A stretch of 20,456 nucleotides of DNA from Bdellovibrionia bacterium. GTDB taxonomy: Bacteria; Bdellovibrionota; UBA1018. The stretch spans positions 1 to 20,456 of the forward strand of contig JBMSSC010000037.1 of assembly GCA_049424145.1 (NCBI GenBank), read 5' to 3'. Positions 1 through 7,359 of this stretch are shown piece after piece. The notes under the pieces were generated by a model that did not search any database, had not been told where the DNA came from, and was given only the letters and a program-made list of their open reading frames with translations. Position numbers and translations under genes: made by a program. Position 1 is the stretch's first letter, and each line of letters begins with the position of its first letter.

Positions 1-144
1 TCCCAGTTACGGGCGTTGTCCCAGTTACGGGCGTTGTCCCAGTTACGGGCGTTGTTCCAGTTGCTGGCGTTGTTCCAGTTACGGGTGCTGTTCCAGTTAC
101 GGGTGCTGTTCCAGTTGCGGGCGTTATTCCAGTTGCGGGTGGAT
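1..144 (-). repeat. 18-bp coding tandem repeat, at least 8 units (T[C/T]CCAGTT[A/G]CGGG[C/T]GTTG-like)
   Basis: Units start at 1, 19, 37, 55, 73, 91, 109 and 127; the first three are identical. They encode TPVTGT/APVTGT/TPATGT on the minus strand. Confidence 0.95.
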
Positions 145-937: not shown

Positions 938-1969
938 GTGATCATCGAAGTCAAAGATATTTGTAGATCATTTAAGTCCAGTAAAAAGGAAGAAGGGCTC
1001 AAGGGCGCTTTCAACCTCTTATTCAACCCCACCTATTCGGTTCACGAGGCACTTCAGTCGGTGAGCTTTCAGATTGAGGCCGGCTCATTTGTGGGCTTAA
1101 TCGGGGCCAATGGAGCAGGAAAAACGACACTGCTGAAAATTCTCTCAGGACTCATCCCTCCCAGTTCAGGTCATGTGCGGGTGTTAGGTACTGATCCGTC
1201 TGAGCGGAGTTTGGATTTTAGAAAGGCCATCGCTTTAGTGATGGGGCAAAAGGCTCAACTTTGGTGGGATCTACCGGCAATTGATGCCTTTGATCTTCTG
1301 AAGGCGATTTATGAGATCCCAGATTCTTTATATCAGGATCGTTTGAACCATCTGACTGAACTCTTGGATGTTAAACGCCATCTGAACACTCAGATTCGAC
1401 GCCTTTCCCTGGGTGAGCGCATGAAGATGGAGCTCATTGGAGCGATCCTGCATTGGCCCAAGGTGATTTTTCTCGATGAACCCACCATTGGGCTAGACGT
1501 ACTTGCCGCTCATAAACTGAGAGAGTTTCTGAAAGTCTTTAATGAGAAGGAAAAGTCCACCATCATTTTAACGAGTCATAATATGGATGACATTGAGAAG
1601 CTCTGCTCCCGCGTCCTCATCCTCAAATCAGGCTCGCTGATCTATGATGGCAAGCCTCAAGGGTTAACGCGTCATGAGGAGCGCCATCTCAAGATGCGGG
1701 TCCTGGAACCCATTTCATGCGAAGAGATGCGGGCTCTGACTCAAGTGCATGAGGGGGCATTGGATCAACAGGAGGACGAGCAGACCCATCAACCGACGTT
1801 CCACTTTCACATCAAAAACGATCAAATCATGAGTGTTCTTCAGAAAGTCATGAGTCGACTCACGATTGTGGACATGGGAATTGAGGAGCAAAGCTTAGAG
1901 AAGGTGATTCAAAACCTCTACTCTGAAGAAAAAGCTCAAATCAATCCACCGAAGCGGGAACTTGTATGA
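938..1969 (+). CDS. ABC transporter ATP-binding protein (ABC-2/DrrA-like)
   Basis: Walker A GANGAGKTT, signature LSLGERMK, Walker B IFLDEPT, H-loop TSHNM; AGAGG SD before GTG. Confidence 0.95.
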   Translation: MIIEVKDICRSFKSSKKEEGLKGAFNLLFNPTYSVHEALQSVSFQIEAGSFVGLIGANGAGKTTLLKILSGLIPPSSGHVRVLGTDPSERSLDFRKAIALVMGQKAQLWWDLPAIDAFDLLKAIYEIPDSLYQDRLNHLTELLDVKRHLNTQIRRLSLGERMKMELIGAILHWPKVIFLDEPTIGLDVLAAHKLREFLKVFNEKEKSTIILTSHNMDDIEKLCSRVLILKSGSLIYDGKPQGLTRHEERHLKMRVLEPISCEEMRALTQVHEGALDQQEDEQTHQPTFHFHIKNDQIMSVLQKVMSRLTIVDMGIEEQSLEKVIQNLYSEEKAQINPPKRELV

Positions 1970-2757
1970 ATATTCAATGGCGACTTGCGGCGTTAAAAAA
2001 TGGGTTTCAAGATGCGACGGCGTATCGATGGGAATTCCTGTTTGAAATTCTCGGTTCGGCATTCGTACCGGCCGCCATTCAGTGTGTGCTTTGGTATGCC
2101 TTGTTTGAGGTGGGAGGTGCCAAGGAAGTGGGGGGCATGAATTACGCTGATCTGGTCACTTACACGGGGATGAGTCTTTTATTTAGCCAAATCCGCGGAG
2201 GGGACCATGATTTTGAGCTTCAAGAGCTGATTCGCACGGGCCAATTGAGCAATTATCTACTCCGACCGGTGGGTGTGGTGGAGTTTATTTATATTCGTGG
2301 AGTAGCGCCCAGAATTTTTATTTCTTTTCTCTGTTTAATGATGGGAGTTGCCGCCAGTTATTTTCTCAATCTCTCCCCTGCTCGAATTCTAGGAGCCATG
2401 CTCCTCGCATTCTTGGGAAATGTCATTCATTACCAGATTGGAGCCACTCTTTCGACCTCAGCATTTTTTTTGGAAGAGGCCCATAGTGTTCTCATGGTGA
2501 AAAACATGGTCGTGAATTTACTCTCAGGAGAACTGATTCCCCTCAATCTCTTTCCTCCTTCGCTCCAATGGATCTGGAAAACCACGCCTTTTTATCTCTA
2601 CGTGTTTGCGCCCACTCAGTTTGCCCTAGGCAAAGCCACATTAGATGATTATTTTGGTCAACTAATGATATCCCTCCTCTGGCTTTTGGCGGGCTGGGCG
2701 GCTATTCGCTTGAGCTGGAGTGTGGGAATGAAACGATATGTGAGCCTAGGGGGTTAG
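1966..2757 (+). CDS. ABC-2 family permease (DUF990/ABC2_membrane_6-like)
   Basis: About 6 hydrophobic segments; IRTGQLSNYLLRP and LLSGELIPLNLFP motifs; ATGA overlap with the ATPase gene. Confidence 0.9.
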   Translation: MNIQWRLAALKNGFQDATAYRWEFLFEILGSAFVPAAIQCVLWYALFEVGGAKEVGGMNYADLVTYTGMSLLFSQIRGGDHDFELQELIRTGQLSNYLLRPVGVVEFIYIRGVAPRIFISFLCLMMGVAASYFLNLSPARILGAMLLAFLGNVIHYQIGATLSTSAFFLEEAHSVLMVKNMVVNLLSGELIPLNLFPPSLQWIWKTTPFYLYVFAPTQFALGKATLDDYFGQLMISLLWLLAGWAAIRLSWSVGMKRYVSLGG

Positions 2758-2762
2758 AGGCC

Positions 2763-3554
2763 ATGAAGATCCTTCATTATTTACGGATTTATCGGATTCA
2801 GATCAAAAACAATTTTGTTCGAGAGGCCGTTTATCGAACCAATTTTCTAACGGCCGTTACGGTGGATTTGATTTGGATGGCCGTGGAGGCGAGTCTCTTC
2901 TCGGTGATTTATGCAAATGTGCCCACGCTTGCCGGCTGGAGTAAGCCGCAGGTTTATTTTTTCCTTGGGATTTTCTTTGCATCCGATGCCCTATTTACGG
3001 TTTTCTTTCAACGAAACTACTGGGTGTTCTCGGACCTGGTGAACCGCGGGGACCTCGATATCTTGCTCACCAAGCCTGTGCATCCTTTGTTTTTAGCTTT
3101 ATCCCGATTCATTCATCTCACGGCGCTGCTCAATGCCGTACTTGGGCTCTTCATTGCATTTGAATTTGCAGAGGCTGCTGGGTTTGCAGGGGGCTGGCAT
3201 TGGCTGCTGGTGGGTTTTTGGCTTCTCATTGGTCTTCTGTCAGCGGTTTTATTGCGCTTCGTATTTGCCATCTCAGTGTTTTGGACAGAAAGAAGCTGGG
3301 CGATCTCCCGAATGTACTATCAGTTCTTTGCATTTGCGACGAAGCCCGACACGATTTATCCCAAGGCAATTGGCTATCTCATTAAGACGATTCTACCATT
3401 TGCCTTCATTGGGAGCGTGCCGGCCCGGGCCCTTCTTTTTGGTCTTCAGCCTGGGGAGTACGTGGGGCTAGTGAGTGTTCTTGGGGGTTTCTTCATTCTT
3501 GATCGTTTCTTATGGAAGAAGGCGCTTCTGAAGTACCAAAGTGCAAGCAGTTAG
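2763..3554 (+). CDS. ABC-2 family permease (DUF990/ABC2_membrane_6-like), second subunit
   Basis: YRTNF, VNRGDLDILLTKP, PDTIYP, LPFAFIGSVPA and C-terminal YQSASS motifs; GAGG SD. Confidence 0.9.
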   Translation: MKILHYLRIYRIQIKNNFVREAVYRTNFLTAVTVDLIWMAVEASLFSVIYANVPTLAGWSKPQVYFFLGIFFASDALFTVFFQRNYWVFSDLVNRGDLDILLTKPVHPLFLALSRFIHLTALLNAVLGLFIAFEFAEAAGFAGGWHWLLVGFWLLIGLLSAVLLRFVFAISVFWTERSWAISRMYYQFFAFATKPDTIYPKAIGYLIKTILPFAFIGSVPARALLFGLQPGEYVGLVSVLGGFFILDRFLWKKALLKYQSASS

Positions 3555-3578
3555 TTGAAAAGGGGTGGGTTTTGAATC

Positions 3579-3594
3579 GGTCGCCGTGGCGACC
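3579..3594. promoter_or_regulatory. 16-bp palindrome copy 1 (GGTCGCCGTGGCGACC), candidate parS; within a longer inverted repeat that might also terminate transcription
   Basis: Seen directly. Flanks TTTTGAA (3570-3576) and TTCAAAA (3595-3601) extend the stem; lies 24 bp after the ABC operon stop. Confidence 0.6.
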
Positions 3595-3692
3595 TTCAAA
3601 AAAATGGACCTATCCTCTCTCATGAGGCTCGAGGAAGTGGCTTAAAACGCAAGAGCTTGAGTCTTTGAACTAATAACCAATGGATTGATTCG

Positions 3693-3843
3693 TAGAATTT
3701 CATGATTTATAGAATTTCATGATCCTTTTCATTTAATGACCTGTAACAATGACCTGTAACAATGACCTGTAACAATGACCTGTAACAATGACCTGTAACA
3801 ATGACCTGTAGTAATGACTTATCTATCATGACTTATAGAATTT
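3693..3843. repeat. AT-rich direct repeats flanking the 13-mer array
   Basis: TAGAATTTCATGAT at 3693 and 3710; TCATGA[T/C]TTATAGAATTT at 3700-3717 and 3826-3843. Confidence 0.85.
3735..3812. repeat. Non-coding tandem array of the 13-mer AATGACCTGTAAC
   Basis: Five perfect units at 3735, 3748, 3761, 3774 and 3787, a sixth (AATGACCTGTAGT) at 3800, and a decayed AATGACTT at 3813. Confidence 0.97.
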
Positions 3844-4105
3844 ATTCCCAATACTCCTATCAACTTCTCTCCCTGCTTTCAGAATGGTTGAAGCCTACGG
3901 CTAAGGGAGGAATCGAAAAAAGGCTCCCAACTGAGGCAAGGCTCCCCCTTGCTCACAAAGGGTATGATCAGATCCTGCTGGAATCCACCTTGAGACCCTT
4001 GAGGTCTACCTATTTAAAAAAATGTTGATTGAAAAACCACCCCCAACTTTGAATCAAGGGATGAAAAAAAACTGACCGATCCTTCCATTATTCCTATTTT
4101 TAATC

Positions 4106-4121
4106 GGTCGCCATGGCGACC
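4106..4121. promoter_or_regulatory. 16-bp perfect palindrome copy 2 (GGTCGCCATGGCGACC), candidate parS/operator upstream of parA
   Basis: Seen directly. Shares the AATC 5' flank with copy 1; GC-rich core in T/A tracts; ends 91 bp before the parA ATG. Confidence 0.65.
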
Positions 4122-4212
4122 ATAAAAAAATCTTTCTAGTTTTTCAATGTAAGCATAAGATTTTAGCCATCTCGAGTATCGATCATCAATCAACCCATGG
4201 AGGTGGTTCAAA

Positions 4213-5202
4213 ATGGCTTCTTTCCGAGACATGCACTTTAGTGCCAGCGAATTCACAAAGATCGCAGGCATTGATAAATCAGCAATCCCGATTCTAGAGG
4301 AAAAAGGAATTTTAAAAACGGTAAAAAAGAAACTCGGCAACTCAGAACGCAAAATGATCCCTTTGGAGAGTTTACAGGGGTATTTTCATGCCATTCGTGA
4401 CGGTCGCCATGGCGACCTCTCCACTTTGTCCAGTTTAGCCTCGTTGCCTAAGCATCGAGTGCAAATGTTTTACAATGTGAAAGGCGGAACGGGAAAATCG
4501 ACACTGACTGCTCAATATGTAATGAAGGCTGCCATGCTGGGGCTTAAGGTCTTAGCGATCGATCTAGATGGCCAAGGGCACCTTACGGTGAACTTGGATG
4601 TTCTCGATGGACATGAAAGAGCCACCATCTATGACGTCCTGATTAATGATCTCCCCTTAGAAGAGGCGATCATGCCAGTGGCCCCCGGGCTAGATCTCAT
4701 TCCAGCCAACTTGGGTTTGTGCAATATTGAGATACCGCTCAATAATAAATCACGGAGAGAGTATCGCTTGTCTGAAGCAATTGCTCGAGTGGTTGACCAC
4801 TATGACTTGATCGTAGCGGACACGAATCCGGCAGCATCGATTCTCAATGGATCCATGCTGGTTGCCTCCCACCTCGTTAATGTGATTTGCGCGACTAACC
4901 CCCTCTCATTCCATGGAATGTCTTTAGTGATGGCCACCATTGAGGGATTGGAGCGAGAATTTCGACATCAGCTTGAAGTGAAGATTGTTCCTAATATGTA
5001 CGATAATCGGGAAGTCATTAGCCAGGAAGTTTTAGGGGAACTCCGAGCTCAGTTTCCAGATCACTGCACTCAAGCGGTGATCAATAAAAGCGCAGATCTC
5101 AACGAGGCCACCAAACGAAGAACCACCGTCTGGGATGTGAACACCAAAGGGGTCGCAGCTCAAGACATTCGCATGCTCACAGAAGAACTCTTATTTAGTT
5201 AA
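4213..5202 (+). CDS. parA: ParA family ATPase with N-terminal HTH extension (type Ia-like)
   Basis: Deviant Walker A KGGTGKST, A' IDLDGQGHLT, Walker B LIVADTNP, NMYDNR. The roughly 80-aa N-terminal extension FSASEFTKIAGIDKSAIPILEEKGIL resembles a MerR/winged HTH. GGAGGT SD. Confidence 0.92.
   Translation: MASFRDMHFSASEFTKIAGIDKSAIPILEEKGILKTVKKKLGNSERKMIPLESLQGYFHAIRDGRHGDLSTLSSLASLPKHRVQMFYNVKGGTGKSTLTAQYVMKAAMLGLKVLAIDLDGQGHLTVNLDVLDGHERATIYDVLINDLPLEEAIMPVAPGLDLIPANLGLCNIEIPLNNKSRREYRLSEAIARVVDHYDLIVADTNPAASILNGSMLVASHLVNVICATNPLSFHGMSLVMATIEGLEREFRHQLEVKIVPNMYDNREVISQEVLGELRAQFPDHCTQAVINKSADLNEATKRRTTVWDVNTKGVAAQDIRMLTEELLFS
4402..4417. promoter_or_regulatory. 16-bp perfect palindrome copy 3 inside parA
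   Basis: GGTCGCCATGGCGACC encodes GRHGD in the linker between the HTH and the ATPase domain. Confidence 0.6.
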
Positions 5203-5218
5203 TGGAAAGGAACGAATC

Positions 5219-6121
5219 ATGGAAGACATCAAAAAAGATGACCCAAACGCAGGTCGAATTAAAACACGACAAGGGAGTGGATACTTAAAGCAGCTCTACT
5301 CTACGGCAAAGACCACAGCAGGGACGACCCACTCTCACCTCAAGAATCTCACTACTTTTTTAGTCAACTTTATCCCTATTGAAAAGGTGGATGCATCCGA
5401 ACTTCAGGTGCGAGTGCATTTTGATGATGCTGAGATCCAAGCTCTATCCCAATCGATTCGAGAGCATGGGGTTTTACAGCCCATCCTAGTTGTCCAGGAT
5501 GGAGACCGATACAAAGTGATCGCCGGGGAGCGTCGACTCAGAGCAGCAAAAGCAGCGGAACTGGATCGAATCCCCGCCCGAGTCTTATCCACCAACGATA
5601 AGGCCACGCATGAGATTGCACTGCGAGAAAACTTGGATCGGGTGGATTTGCATCCAATCGAAGAAGGCGAAGGCTACGTTTCGCTTCTTGAAACCAAAGC
5701 CTACATCAGTCATGACGCGATTGCTAAGGCGTTTGGAAAGCCAAAGTCTCGAATCACGGAGTGCATTGGATTCACTCGGCTCTCTGAAACCACCAAACAG
5801 GAACTCCTGCGCACTGGGGTAAAAAACAGGGCTCTCCTTCGCCAGTTACTCACCTTGCCTGCGGACAAACAAGTCGAGCTGATTCAAGATGCAGTCGGCA
5901 AAGAAGAAGTGGTGGAGACTTTGCCACAAATTCCAGCCCCTGCCTCCAGCAAGGACCCAGCCCCCAAAGCGGCCCCAGCGAAACCCTTTGCTTACCGAGT
6001 CGATAAGAAAGGAGTATCTGTACCGAGCTTCAAGTGGAGAAAAAAAGACTCTCCTGAAGCTCTTCAGAACTACATTGCATCACTCAAGCGGTTGATCTCC
6101 GAGCTCGAGTCTTTCAGCTGA
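5219..6121 (+). CDS. parB: ParB/RepB/Spo0J family CTPase DNA-binding protein
   Basis: LSQSIREHGVLQPILV, IAGERRLRAA (CTP-binding GxxR motif), ENLDRVDLHPIEE, HTH SHDAIAKAFGKPKSRITECIG; 16 bp downstream of parA. Confidence 0.93.
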   Translation: MEDIKKDDPNAGRIKTRQGSGYLKQLYSTAKTTAGTTHSHLKNLTTFLVNFIPIEKVDASELQVRVHFDDAEIQALSQSIREHGVLQPILVVQDGDRYKVIAGERRLRAAKAAELDRIPARVLSTNDKATHEIALRENLDRVDLHPIEEGEGYVSLLETKAYISHDAIAKAFGKPKSRITECIGFTRLSETTKQELLRTGVKNRALLRQLLTLPADKQVELIQDAVGKEEVVETLPQIPAPASSKDPAPKAAPAKPFAYRVDKKGVSVPSFKWRKKDSPEALQNYIASLKRLISELESFS

Positions 6122-7359
6122 TTGAGGTTAACCCCGAGAACAGGCCAAGAGGACTGGGATCGTCTCTTTAAGTAGGAGAAAAACTCGTTGGTTCGAATCC
6201 TCCCACCGCTGGAGGCGTGACGGAAGAACAACTGGTTTTTCTCCTTAACCAAAAACCCCTGATGGGTGATGAGAACCGGGTGCTTAGGATGAGATCGGCG
6301 CACTAGGTTGATGATGGTTCCATCAGGAATTCGGCTTGCCACTTTTTTTAGGCTTTTTAAGTCAATATAGGGAACGGAGGAAATCTGTGGACTCGACTCG
6401 TCAGAGGGAGTCTCCACTGATGCCAATGCACGAGTATGTCCGAGCTTTTTAGCGTTTTGGACAAGCCATTGGGCACGATCCACCTTTTTTGAGGCCACTT
6501 GGATCTTCAGGCCGCCTTCTTTGGCAATGAGCTGGGTGATGTCCGTGAGCAGTCCTGATCTCTGGTTATTGGGAATCCAATCGGCTTCAGGAAAGTGATT
6601 TCGTGAGGCGTAGTTTGATTTGCCATCCTTGTATCGCAGCGACAGGAGGTTACCAACAAAGTCCCGCTCCCGTTCACTTCGAGAGAGCGCGGCGACGGTC
6701 TCAACGTAAGTGGTACAATCTAAGCTTGAAGGAACTAATGGCGCAACATCTTCAATACTGTAGCCTTCAGCAAGGTCTGCAATTTTTTTCTGATTCTCTG
6801 AATTGCCCTCAATGAAGGAGCTCCAGAACTTGACCCGCTCGGCAAAGGGTAACTTTTGAGCCAATTGAAACTCTTTTCCCAGAGGACCCAAGTTTTGCTT
6901 TTGAATCTCAGGGGCAGGCTGAGCGACAGAGTCACTGCCTGCTTGAGGACCTTTGGGACCTGCCGACGCAGGAGGAGGGGTGATGGGCTCAACCCCCTGG
7001 GGTGCCTGAGTCTGAGGTTGCGACGGAAGCATCAGCTGGGCCTGTTGCGCCTCTGGACTCGGCAGAGCGTCTGGGGAGTCTTTCCCTCTTGGAGGTTGCG
7101 ATAAAAAAACTGCTCCTAAAACCAACCCCACTGTTCCGATCGAAAATAGGGACCACTTCAGCGTGTCAAACTGAACCCGATGAACCCATTTTCTTAAAGC
7201 CCGGGGGCGAAGCGCATGACTTCGCTTTCGCTTTTCATCCATCATGGACTGGATCGACTTTTTTGAAGACAAGTCAGCTTTCTTTTTGGATTGAGTCTTC
7301 TTCCTTCGTAATCCTTCTGAACGCTTAGGCTTTTGCCTCTTCACCCCGAGTTTTGCCAT
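6070..7359 (-). CDS. Membrane-anchored DUF1460 (AmiA-like, NlpC/P60 superfamily) N-acetylmuramoyl-L-alanine amidase-like protein
   Basis: LDCTTYVETVAAL (catalytic Cys), LRYKDG...RNHF..DWI.NN, ITHQGF, FRHASS. Basic N-tail, one TM helix, Pro/Gln linker; GAGGGG SD. Confidence 0.85.
   Translation of the reverse strand: MAKLGVKRQKPKRSEGLRRKKTQSKKKADLSSKKSIQSMMDEKRKRSHALRPRALRKWVHRVQFDTLKWSLFSIGTVGLVLGAVFLSQPPRGKDSPDALPSPEAQQAQLMLPSQPQTQAPQGVEPITPPPASAGPKGPQAGSDSVAQPAPEIQKQNLGPLGKEFQLAQKLPFAERVKFWSSFIEGNSENQKKIADLAEGYSIEDVAPLVPSSLDCTTYVETVAALSRSERERDFVGNLLSLRYKDGKSNYASRNHFPEADWIPNNQRSGLLTDITQLIAKEGGLKIQVASKKVDRAQWLVQNAKKLGHTRALASVETPSDESSPQISSVPYIDLKSLKKVASRIPDGTIINLVRRSHPKHPVLITHQGFLVKEKNQLFFRHASSGGRIRTNEFFSYLKRRSQSSWPVLGVNLNQLKDSSSEINRLSDAM

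Follow-up and report, generated by a model that had tools for sequence, protein, structure and literature searches.

On balance, we favour the view that the partition locus described here, parABS2, is an anciently domesticated plasmid ParABS that acts beside the canonical parABS as a second, accessory centromere. It lies in a stretch of 20,456 nucleotides (the window) from a Bdellovibrionia bacterium, where the genes parA2 and parB2 are accompanied by three copies of a 16-bp palindrome, the candidate parS2 (Table 1). A sequence-only reading of the window had raised the question of whether the palindrome and orthologous parB genes go together in relatives, and indeed they do: this ParB is present in 76 of 401 Bdellovibrionota genomes, all in one order; 75 of them also carry GGTCGCCRYGGCGACC, against none of the 325 others, and the exception (G026) has two copies with a CC/GG centre. 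Judged from the sequences, ParB2 very probably binds the palindrome.

Table 1. Features of the parABS2 locus, in window coordinates
Feature	Position	Strand	Description
Three-gene ABC transporter operon	938..3554	+	Conserved genes on the upstream side, a marker of the insertion site; given for context, outside the system
Candidate parS2 site 1	3579..3594	.	GGTCGCCGTGGCGACC; 25 bp past the stop codon of the preceding ABC gene; 634 bp upstream of the parA2 start codon
Candidate parS2 site 2	4106..4121	.	GGTCGCCATGGCGACC; 107 bp 5' of the parA2 ATG; ends ~12 bp upstream of the inferred -35
Inferred sigma-70-type parA2 promoter	4133..4161	+	-35 near 4133-4139; -10 TAAGAT at 4156-4161; by eye
parA2	4213..5202	+	329 aa type Ia ParA; AAA_31 E 1.8e-33; KGGTGKS ATPase
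Candidate parS2 site 3	4402..4417	.	GGTCGCCATGGCGACC; within parA2 codons 64-69 (GRHGDL), in a low-confidence linker of the model
parB2	5219..6121	+	300 aa; ParB_N E 5.8e-25, HTH_ParB E 1.2e-8

The palindrome and the genes beside it

The three clustered palindromes that had been noticed at parA are confirmed, spanning 839 bp, and, as had also been stated, the window holds no further copy, even at two or fewer mismatches; in shuffled windows 0.07 matches would be expected, and three were reached in none of 100 shuffles. Nor is this a genome-wide repeat, since the whole 2.69-Mb genome contains just three exact matches, all at parAB2, with 0.008 expected from base composition. The earlier description of two perfect copies and one with an A>G change was right about a single-base difference at the centre, but the variant copy is not degenerate, because AC/GT is the most frequent centre (67 of 129 sites, of which 123 have a purine-pyrimidine centre). 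A weaker preference at the flanking positions lengthens the consensus to 18 bp, (c/t)GGTCGCCRYGGCGACC(g/a), and the loci have between one and eight exact, clustered sites, carried in some loci by tandem arrays of 36-55-bp units. When the bare motif was sought across the collection, the matches listed were mostly single chance matches in GC-rich genomes.

Most sites (86/129) lie upstream of parA2 and another 41 in its 5' part. The linker that holds the latter differs in length, and its sites are translated in two reading frames (GRxGD for 17 of them, VAxAT for 24), so that selection here would appear to act on the DNA and not on the peptide. Nor is the distance from site to ATG fixed: 33 of 35 loci have it at 76-247 bp, and at one locus (L061) the sites lie 1.6-3 kb away after an inversion, with parAB2 intact. 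Between sites 1 and 2 of the window there is, in addition, a 13-bp tandem array of 6.5 copies; an Rfam scan of 3400-4500 gave as its sole match Pistol, at a sub-threshold E of 0.29, which we rejected.

By the Walker A motif and N-terminal domain of its ParA, and the CTP motif and HTH of its ParB, parA2-parB2 is a type Ia ParABS. ParA2 consists of an N-terminal strand-helix-helix-hairpin-helix domain (residues 1-62), a variable linker and an ATPase with the deviant Walker A motif at residues 90-96; K90, G94, K95, D117 and D119 are invariant in 56 sequences. The N-terminal domain is predicted to be the (winged) HTH of type Ia ParAs, an assignment that comes from the model (pLDDT ~90 for residues 1-60, with the same topology) because Pfam is silent for residues 1-80; an ESM Atlas search with this N-terminus gave a best score of 0.77, a lead at most. 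The ParA2 model aligns over its full length with Vibrio cholerae ParA2 (7npd; Z 28.8, rmsd 3.0, 307 residues) and with 3ez9 (283 residues). ParB2 has a ParB CTPase domain, whose GxxRxxA motif (GERRLRA, residues 103-109) is invariant in 37 orthologues, an HTH with the recognition helix KPKSRITECIGF, and a short C-terminal strand-strand-helix domain; the recognition helix is nearly invariant, and the site is invariant alongside it. Its best solved matches are Myxococcus ParB (7bnk, E 8e-31), Noc and Spo0J, and an ESM Atlas search returned ParB clusters only.

Relatives show a putative promoter at the place given in Table 1, CTTGC(G/A) ... TA(G/C)AAT (CTTGCG in 18, TAGAAT in 13 and TACAAT in 11 of 36 upstream regions), and 6-mer counts over these regions brought up only promoter-like and RBS words. 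A consensus promoter/terminator scan found five sites against 2.1 expected, none of them the conserved parA2 promoter. Read mapping, which covered contigs only, gave one RNA-library contig over 4179-4323, which is no proof of transcription.

Known systems, hosts and a probable plasmid origin

The palindrome had been described as unlike known parS sites, and so it is: the canonical consensus TGTTNCACGTGAAACA has no match at two or fewer mismatches on the window's contig, and candidate parS2 departs from the F Sop subfamily site TGGGACC-RY-GGTCCCA. A suggested likeness to F sopC holds for the CC-RY-GG centre but goes no further than that, since TGGGACCACGGTCCCA differs from candidate parS2 at four of seven bases per arm, sharing the other three and the RY centre; a purine-pyrimidine centre and tandem arrays are common to both (PMC3177203). 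The known type Ia systems (F SopABC, P1/P7 ParAB and Vibrio cholerae ParAB2) share with parABS2 an HTH ParB with a CTP motif and a 16-bp inverted repeat; unlike them, parABS2 has its sites upstream of or inside parA, has no rep gene, and sits on the dnaA replicon beside a canonical system. Another plasmid ParB site, IncP-9 NAH7 parS TTTCTCGCATGCGAGAAA, has TCGC and GCGA half-sites (PMC12421886); these are separated by two bases, not four, and the outer bases differ, the comparison being one of the sites.

The canonical Soj/Spo0J ParABS has in common with parABS2 the CTPase and HTH fold of its ParB and a small number of sites, located on the main chromosome in the half that contains the origin. 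ParB2 and ParB1 are, however, only 32% identical, over 152 residues. Canonical specificity resides in R173/T179/A184/G201 and N178 (PMC7383237), where the aligned ParB2 has K176, C182, R187, A205 and E181; the first four differ likewise from the Noc residues Q/K/K/R, and the NCBIfam Noc score of ParB2 is 150.5, the cut-off being 315. In Bdellovibrio bacteriovorus, parS is TGTTCCACGTGGAACA (PMC10547168).

Our literature search, which covered mainly openly accessible main texts, found nothing on this site or on a second parAB in Bdellovibrionota, and candidate parS2 is apparently undescribed. One ParB paper containing GGTCGCC was considered as a prior report and discarded, the sequence there being part of a lambda-end oligo (one paper checked).

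The host group is made up mostly of uncultured relatives of predatory bacteria. The locus had been placed outside the usual mnmG-rsmG-parA-parB context and proposed to be a second, domesticated system free of rep, integrase and transposase genes, all of which is supported. Among the window's ORFs no such gene was seen (a Pfam scan covered 13 ORFs or parts of them, the others being judged by sequence), and the canonical mnmG-rsmG-parS-parA-parB locus is complete on another contig (C15) of the same genome, with two sites identical to parSBb, so that parABS2 is an addition and not a replacement. Exact canonical parS sites were found in 66 of 86 genomes, and the presence of canonical parABS alongside counts against an evident need for a second system. 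Within its order the parABS2 neighbourhood is syntenic across families, and ParA2 and ParB2 (median identities 70% and 69%) are conserved as well as or better than the neighbouring tig (51%) and truA (59%). The system is nevertheless dispensable, because the syntenic site is empty in at least seven genomes, two of them from a genus in which the other members sampled still have the system: in 7 of 10 ParB2-less genomes of the order the ABC operon is followed by at least 1.5 kb devoid of parAB2 or a site, and in two ParB2-less genomes it abuts tig. Genes and sites thus look to have been lost together; at another locus (L076) parA and the sites are gone and the ParB branch is long.

As for domestication, ParA2 and ParB2 both cluster, in their respective trees, with the partition proteins of plasmids from protist and arthropod endosymbionts. 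ParA2 joins the plasmid partition ATPases with support of 100/98, and ParB2 the plasmid ParBs, as their sister clade, with 98/95 in the careful tree but only 82 in the quick one, on long branches. An origin by duplication of the host pair is rejected, the AU test excluding one clade with parAB1 (ParB p 0.0062, ParA p 8.5e-85). A clade of ParA2 with the seven endosymbiont ParAs alone was also rejected (p 0.0055), because two unplaced metagenomic proteins fall inside it; the larger clade is supported. The uncharacterised parAB loci concerned are those of Ca. Megaera (CP113872.1 and CP113871.1), Ca. Bandiella (NZ_CP104165.1) and Ca. Cardinium (CP101108.1), whose ParAs are 33-35% identical to ParA2 over the full length. 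Like parABS2, they have palindromes next to parAB that are the same or related; on one Ca. Megaera plasmid the very same 16-mer stands 15 bp 3' of parB, the only match in that plasmid's 48 kb. Unlike parABS2, they are plasmid-borne, three adjoin a DnaA-like or long divergent gene, and their sites, numbering one to three with varying outer bases, are mostly downstream of parB or between genes. Perfect-arm NNN-CGC-N4-GCG-NNN palindromes lie beside parAB in all eight loci of the endosymbiont ParB clade and in none of 72 control loci below 45% GC; this relaxed motif was derived after viewing the loci, and it matches 36 of 234 control loci, all at 45% GC or above. We found no paper on the parS of these plasmids. 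Among viral contigs, the best match (L294) has no site and encodes a related ParA whose downstream neighbour is not ParB, the ParB check covering L294-L300 of 79 viral loci.

What the locus may do

Our explanation is that a type Ia, plasmid-type ParABS cassette would have been captured into the main chromosome of the ancestor of one Bdellovibrionota order and then inherited vertically, without a replication gene, beside canonical parABS. ParB2 dimers would recognise GGTCGCCRYGGCGACC through the HTH, close as a CTP clamp and spread, as known ParB biology suggests, giving a partition complex at the clustered exact sites. This complex would stimulate nucleoid-bound ParA2-ATP, so that the locus is moved or held 75 to >370 kb from oriC (a distance with at least five-fold variation, on either arm). 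A different recognition helix would insulate this accessory centromere from ParB1/parS1. As a secondary role, the ParA2 N-terminal domain is likely to repress the operon with the help of ParB2 spreading. The centromere role itself, which we draw from knowledge of the family, seems to us somewhat better than an even bet.

Of the alternatives, the one that survives best, though we think it unlikely, is that the ParB2-site complex is a chromosome-tethered landmark, patterning ParA2 in order to place the division site or polar machinery and not moving DNA. Landmark-type positioning of other structures is familiar from MipZ and Noc, and a canonical segregation system is already present. Moreover, N-extended ParA relatives in Myxococcota and Syntrophales lack a ParB at 77 of 80 loci and have no such sites, so that the wider ParA family often works without a centromere; but these orphans form a clade separate from ParA2, which sits with the plasmid ATPases. 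ParB2 residues 15-53 are near-invariant and include a predicted helix (20-32, hydrophobic at 22, 23, 26, 27 and 30), which might be taken in the same direction, Noc having an N-terminal amphipathic membrane helix, but the helix has a pLDDT below 50. A predicted complex of a ParA2 dimer with ParB2 residues 8-52 scored 0.16 and was weighed for neither side. The MipZ Pfam match on ParA2 covers residues 85-120 only, and whereas Noc sites are dispersed, parS2 sites are gathered at one locus.

Less likely again is that the palindrome is mainly an operator through which ParB2, or the ParA2 N-terminal domain, represses parAB2 or its neighbours with no positioning involved. Autoregulation would also be consistent with the location of most sites, beside the promoter or early in parA, and ParB-mediated repression near parS (PMC10786196) and autoregulation of type Ia operons (PMC7022226) are reported. 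However, the sites do not overlap the inferred -35 but precede it by varying distances (by eye), L061 has no site near its ATG, endosymbiont plasmids have theirs mostly elsewhere, and a self-regulating loop would leave the 60-84% conservation of the ATPase across the order unaccounted for. Against ParA as the binder, the orphan ParAs have the N-terminal domain and no such sites.

A further reading, which we consider improbable, makes the locus a chromid's partition module and origin, or else a second origin in active use, the 13-bp array serving as iterons. In its favour, type Ia systems are usually found on secondary replicons, the contig of the window measures a mere 20 kb, and the array does lie between two sites. 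This idea is largely refuted by parB2 and dnaA sharing a contig, 75-308 kb apart, in 6 of 10 genomes checked, which is not the picture of a secondary replicon with its own initiator. Iterons were rejected as well, the 13-mer not being found as an array in the 37 related loci, where the shortest intergenic gap is ~80 bp; the DnaA-like protein beside endosymbiont plasmid parAB has no homologue in G000, and GC skew in G005 (10-kb samples, coarse) switches at dnaA, with no switch near parB2. It is scarcely credible that the locus is a binning artefact, a REP-like repeat or a recently inserted mobile element: plasmid-type genes in a metagenome-assembled genome might prompt the thought, but synteny and distribution refute it, GC and GC3 of parAB2 match the neighbouring genes, and 70 of the 76 sites listed are within ~3 kb of parB2.

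A proposed second centromere and its significance

Textbooks assign a single ParABS to each replicon, and to primary chromosomes a parS that is nearly universal. The main chromosome here probably has two independent centromeres. A precedent of a kind is the dicentric fusion chromosome of Agrobacterium tumefaciens C58, where ParABS and repABC with different sites share one DNA molecule (PMC11514494). That is a strain-level fusion keeping a second essential origin; parABS2, by contrast, has no initiator that we could find and is kept across most of its order. We would put at about even the chances of the broadest picture, in which most of the order has a stable two-centromere, single-origin chromosome, on which a plasmid ParABS, captured and using a DNA code of its own, powers another partition complex at a distance of tens to hundreds of kb from oriC, parallel to the canonical one, perhaps in another phase of the cell cycle or in multi-copy segregation during a predatory life cycle; the wider family, with NNN-CGC-N4-GCG-NNN sites that change along with the ParB helix, would be a natural set of orthogonal ParB-parS pairs that has gone undescribed.

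If true, this would be a lineage-wide exception, a plasmid system domesticated without its replicon, and a direct way into the questions of why a second centromere is kept on one chromosome and how a pair of ParA motors stay out of each other's way. A prediction also follows for the parS on plasmids of endosymbionts belonging to the Rickettsiales, the Holosporales and Cardinium, and ParB-site pairs that differ by graded base changes would lend themselves to specificity studies, orthogonal locus labelling and plasmid stabilisation.

A probable second ParABS system on one chromosome

The data show that parAB2, the gene pair of the window, has been added beside the canonical chromosomal parABS of its host and does not replace it. 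The genome that contains the window (2.69 Mb, 193 contigs, 95% complete) holds exactly two ParB_N matches, namely ParB2 itself and ParB1 on contig C15, where the gene order, named from translations, is mnmG, rsmG, parA, parB, a small gene and ATP synthase genes. Two copies of TGTTCCACGTGGAACA, the Bdellovibrio bacteriovorus parS (PMC10547168), lie there either side of rsmG and upstream of parA, so that the second system proposed in the sequence-only reading sits alongside a full canonical locus. ParB2 and ParB1 share 32% identity over 152 aa. Exact canonical parS is present in 66 of the 86 genomes of the order, and a further ParB match, a candidate canonical orthologue, was recovered in 49/53 ParB2-bearing genomes of one search.

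The three palindromes lie where that reading had placed them, and its claim of no further copy in the window holds up to two mismatches, with none of 100 shuffles reaching three copies. They are also the sole exact copies genome-wide, joined by two lone one-mismatch sites on other contigs. The 13-bp repeat is unique to this contig and was not seen as an array in 37 related loci; it is probably a lineage-specific VNTR.

Those 37 loci, a set that shares some members with the genome set, keep the arrangement of ABC operon, sites, parA2 and parB2, often followed by mscS, a PilZ gene, tig and truA, and the same gene order recurs in other families of the order. Sites are present in 35 of them, the exceptions being one locus cut by a contig end and L076, which offers a natural experiment on decay or repurposing. 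The GC and GC3 of parAB2 are like those of its neighbours. Of ten genomes that were checked, six have parB2 on the contig of dnaA, at distances of ~75, 157, 166, 179, 295 and 308 kb (four on one arm, two on the other) that are biased short, because the two genes fall on separate contigs in the other four; for G005 the GC skew, as sampled, together with the lengths of the contigs suggests at least ~370 kb. No description of order-wide coexistence of two ParABS systems on the dnaA replicon was found in the literature searched, and the nearest precedent found, the Agrobacterium fusion chromosome, differs in keeping a second origin (PMC11514494).

Coordinates of the features discussed
Location	Feature	Strand
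Window 3-139	18-bp tandem repeat coding a Pro/Thr/Gly-rich (TTPVTG)n tail; ORF leaves contig end	-
Window 938..3554	ABC operon	+
Window 3579, 4106, 4402	16-bp palindromes, candidate parS2	
Window 3735-3818	Tandem array with a 13-bp unit, AATGACCTGTAAC, in 6.5 copies, bordered by short TAGAATTTCATGA repeats	
Window 4213..5202	parA2, 329 aa	+
Window 5219..6121	parB2, 300 aa	+
Window 6070-7359	AmiA-like (PF07313) gene, 3' end overlapping parB2 stop by 52 bp; same place in ~10/37 related loci	-
L061:1850-4800	Inverted ABC operon, placing nearest exact sites 1.6-3 kb from parA2 start; ParB helix slightly changed (KQKSRITECISF)	
L076:1706-3490	Orphan ParB2 at syntenic place, parA and all sites lost; N-terminus rewritten, long branch, recognition helix intact	
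L294:3962-5753	Viral-collection contig: related ParA, 202-aa gene of no clear family, 15-bp tandem array at contig end	
L458:720-1670	Ca. Manganitrophus plasmid with TGTGGGAC(G/C)TCCCACA, another candidate parS, present four times upstream of type Ia-like parAB and rep	
L499:1-420	Six near-copies of the site, GGTCGCGGCGGCGAC(C/T), after ABC gene, several 44 bp apart; parAB2 not assembled	
G005:C3 near 1.40 and 1.46 Mb	Additional pair of hits to the DnaA model (its C-terminal portion), either side of dnaA, which its assembly splits into two frames	

Distribution and loss

The phylum was sampled by 401 genomes, each 85% complete or more. ParB2 (E below 1e-40) was found in 76, every one of them among the order's 86 and none among the 315 outside it; ParA2 is present in 75 of the 86. 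The sequence-only reading had asked whether the palindrome accompanies parAB orthologues in relatives, and GGTCGCCRYGGCGACC does occur in 75/76 genomes with ParB2 against 0/325 without, the one remaining ParB2 genome having two copies with a CC/GG centre. Losses weigh more than such counts, since kin are not independent. The upstream ABC gene was recovered in eight of the ten order genomes lacking ParB2, and in seven of these the next 1.5 kb contains neither parAB2 nor a site; in two of the seven the ABC operon abuts tig. In the eighth, G283, the contig (L499) ends 420 bp past the ABC gene, and the absence of ParB2 is probably an assembly break.

The sites and the proteins

We counted 129 exact sites in the window together with the 36 loci where ParA2 was matched; 86 lie upstream of parA2, 41 within the gene and 2 downstream. 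An in-gene site occurs in 34/36 loci with a full parA2 start, always in the linker from the N-terminal domain to the ATPase, and since this linker varies in length by ~60 residues and the sites fall into two reading frames (17 in one, 24 in the other), it is the DNA that is conserved and not the peptide. The centre is purine-pyrimidine in 123/129, the rule shown for SopB-sopC (PMC3177203). Several relatives have expanded the site in tandem, in units of 36-55 bp. The closest upstream site lies 76-247 bp from the parA2 ATG in 33/35 loci and, judged by eye, upstream of a conserved promoter-like CTTGC...TA(G/C)AAT element.

In ParB2 the GERRLRA motif is kept and the recognition helix hardly varies. 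PMC7383237 gives four positions that set specificity (RTAG in ParB, QKKR in Noc, N178 common to both); by alignment ParB2 has K, C, R and A there, and E in place of N178, so that, judged by residues, it should not read canonical parS. In the predicted ParA2 model (pLDDT 92.6) the N-terminal domain is folded, and the alignments with V. cholerae ParA2 and with 3ez9 run over the whole length; chromosomal ParAs carry no such domain (PMC7022226).

Plasmid relatives and likely role

The component parts belong to a known class, and no description of the site sequence, or of the endosymbiont site family, was found in the literature searched; the NAH7 parS has half-sites in common with the palindrome at a different spacing (PMC12421886). 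The best plasmid matches of ParA2 are on Ca. Megaera (E 2e-55) and Ca. Bandiella (3e-54) plasmids, where parB follows parA. The former carries GGTCGCCACGGCGACC 15 bp past parB, its only match within 48 kb, and the latter GGTCGCAACTGCGACC, while GTTCGC, TGTCGC, TATCGC or TTCCGC variants adjoin parAB in six more loci of the endosymbiont-plasmid ParB clade. The pattern that these loci have in common was drawn up post hoc; it occurs in 0/72 control loci under 45% GC and in 36/234 of all controls.

ParB2 is sister to eight ParBs of this clade (98/95; 82 in a quick tree with fewer rows), and ParA2 falls with endosymbiont-plasmid ParAs in a 100/98 clade. Grouping with the host's own proteins was rejected for both ParB2 (p 0.0062) and ParA2 (p 8.5e-85). 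The type Ia build and narrow chromosomal range, in place of a rooted tree, suggest transfer from plasmid to chromosome. The plasmid's DnaA-like gene has no homologue in the window's genome. Separately, N-extended ParA homologues without ParB form a clade in Myxococcota, Syntrophales, Gemmatimonadota and others (L375-L411, L215-L239).

ParB2 very probably binds the site. The complex might serve as a spatial landmark for another process, which we consider unlikely, and a purely regulatory role is a little less likely again. The repeated loss of the system counts against all essential roles. We favour, with some confidence, a second, accessory centromere, because ATPase, CTPase and sites persist or disappear as a unit and the closest relatives of the system serve plasmid partition.
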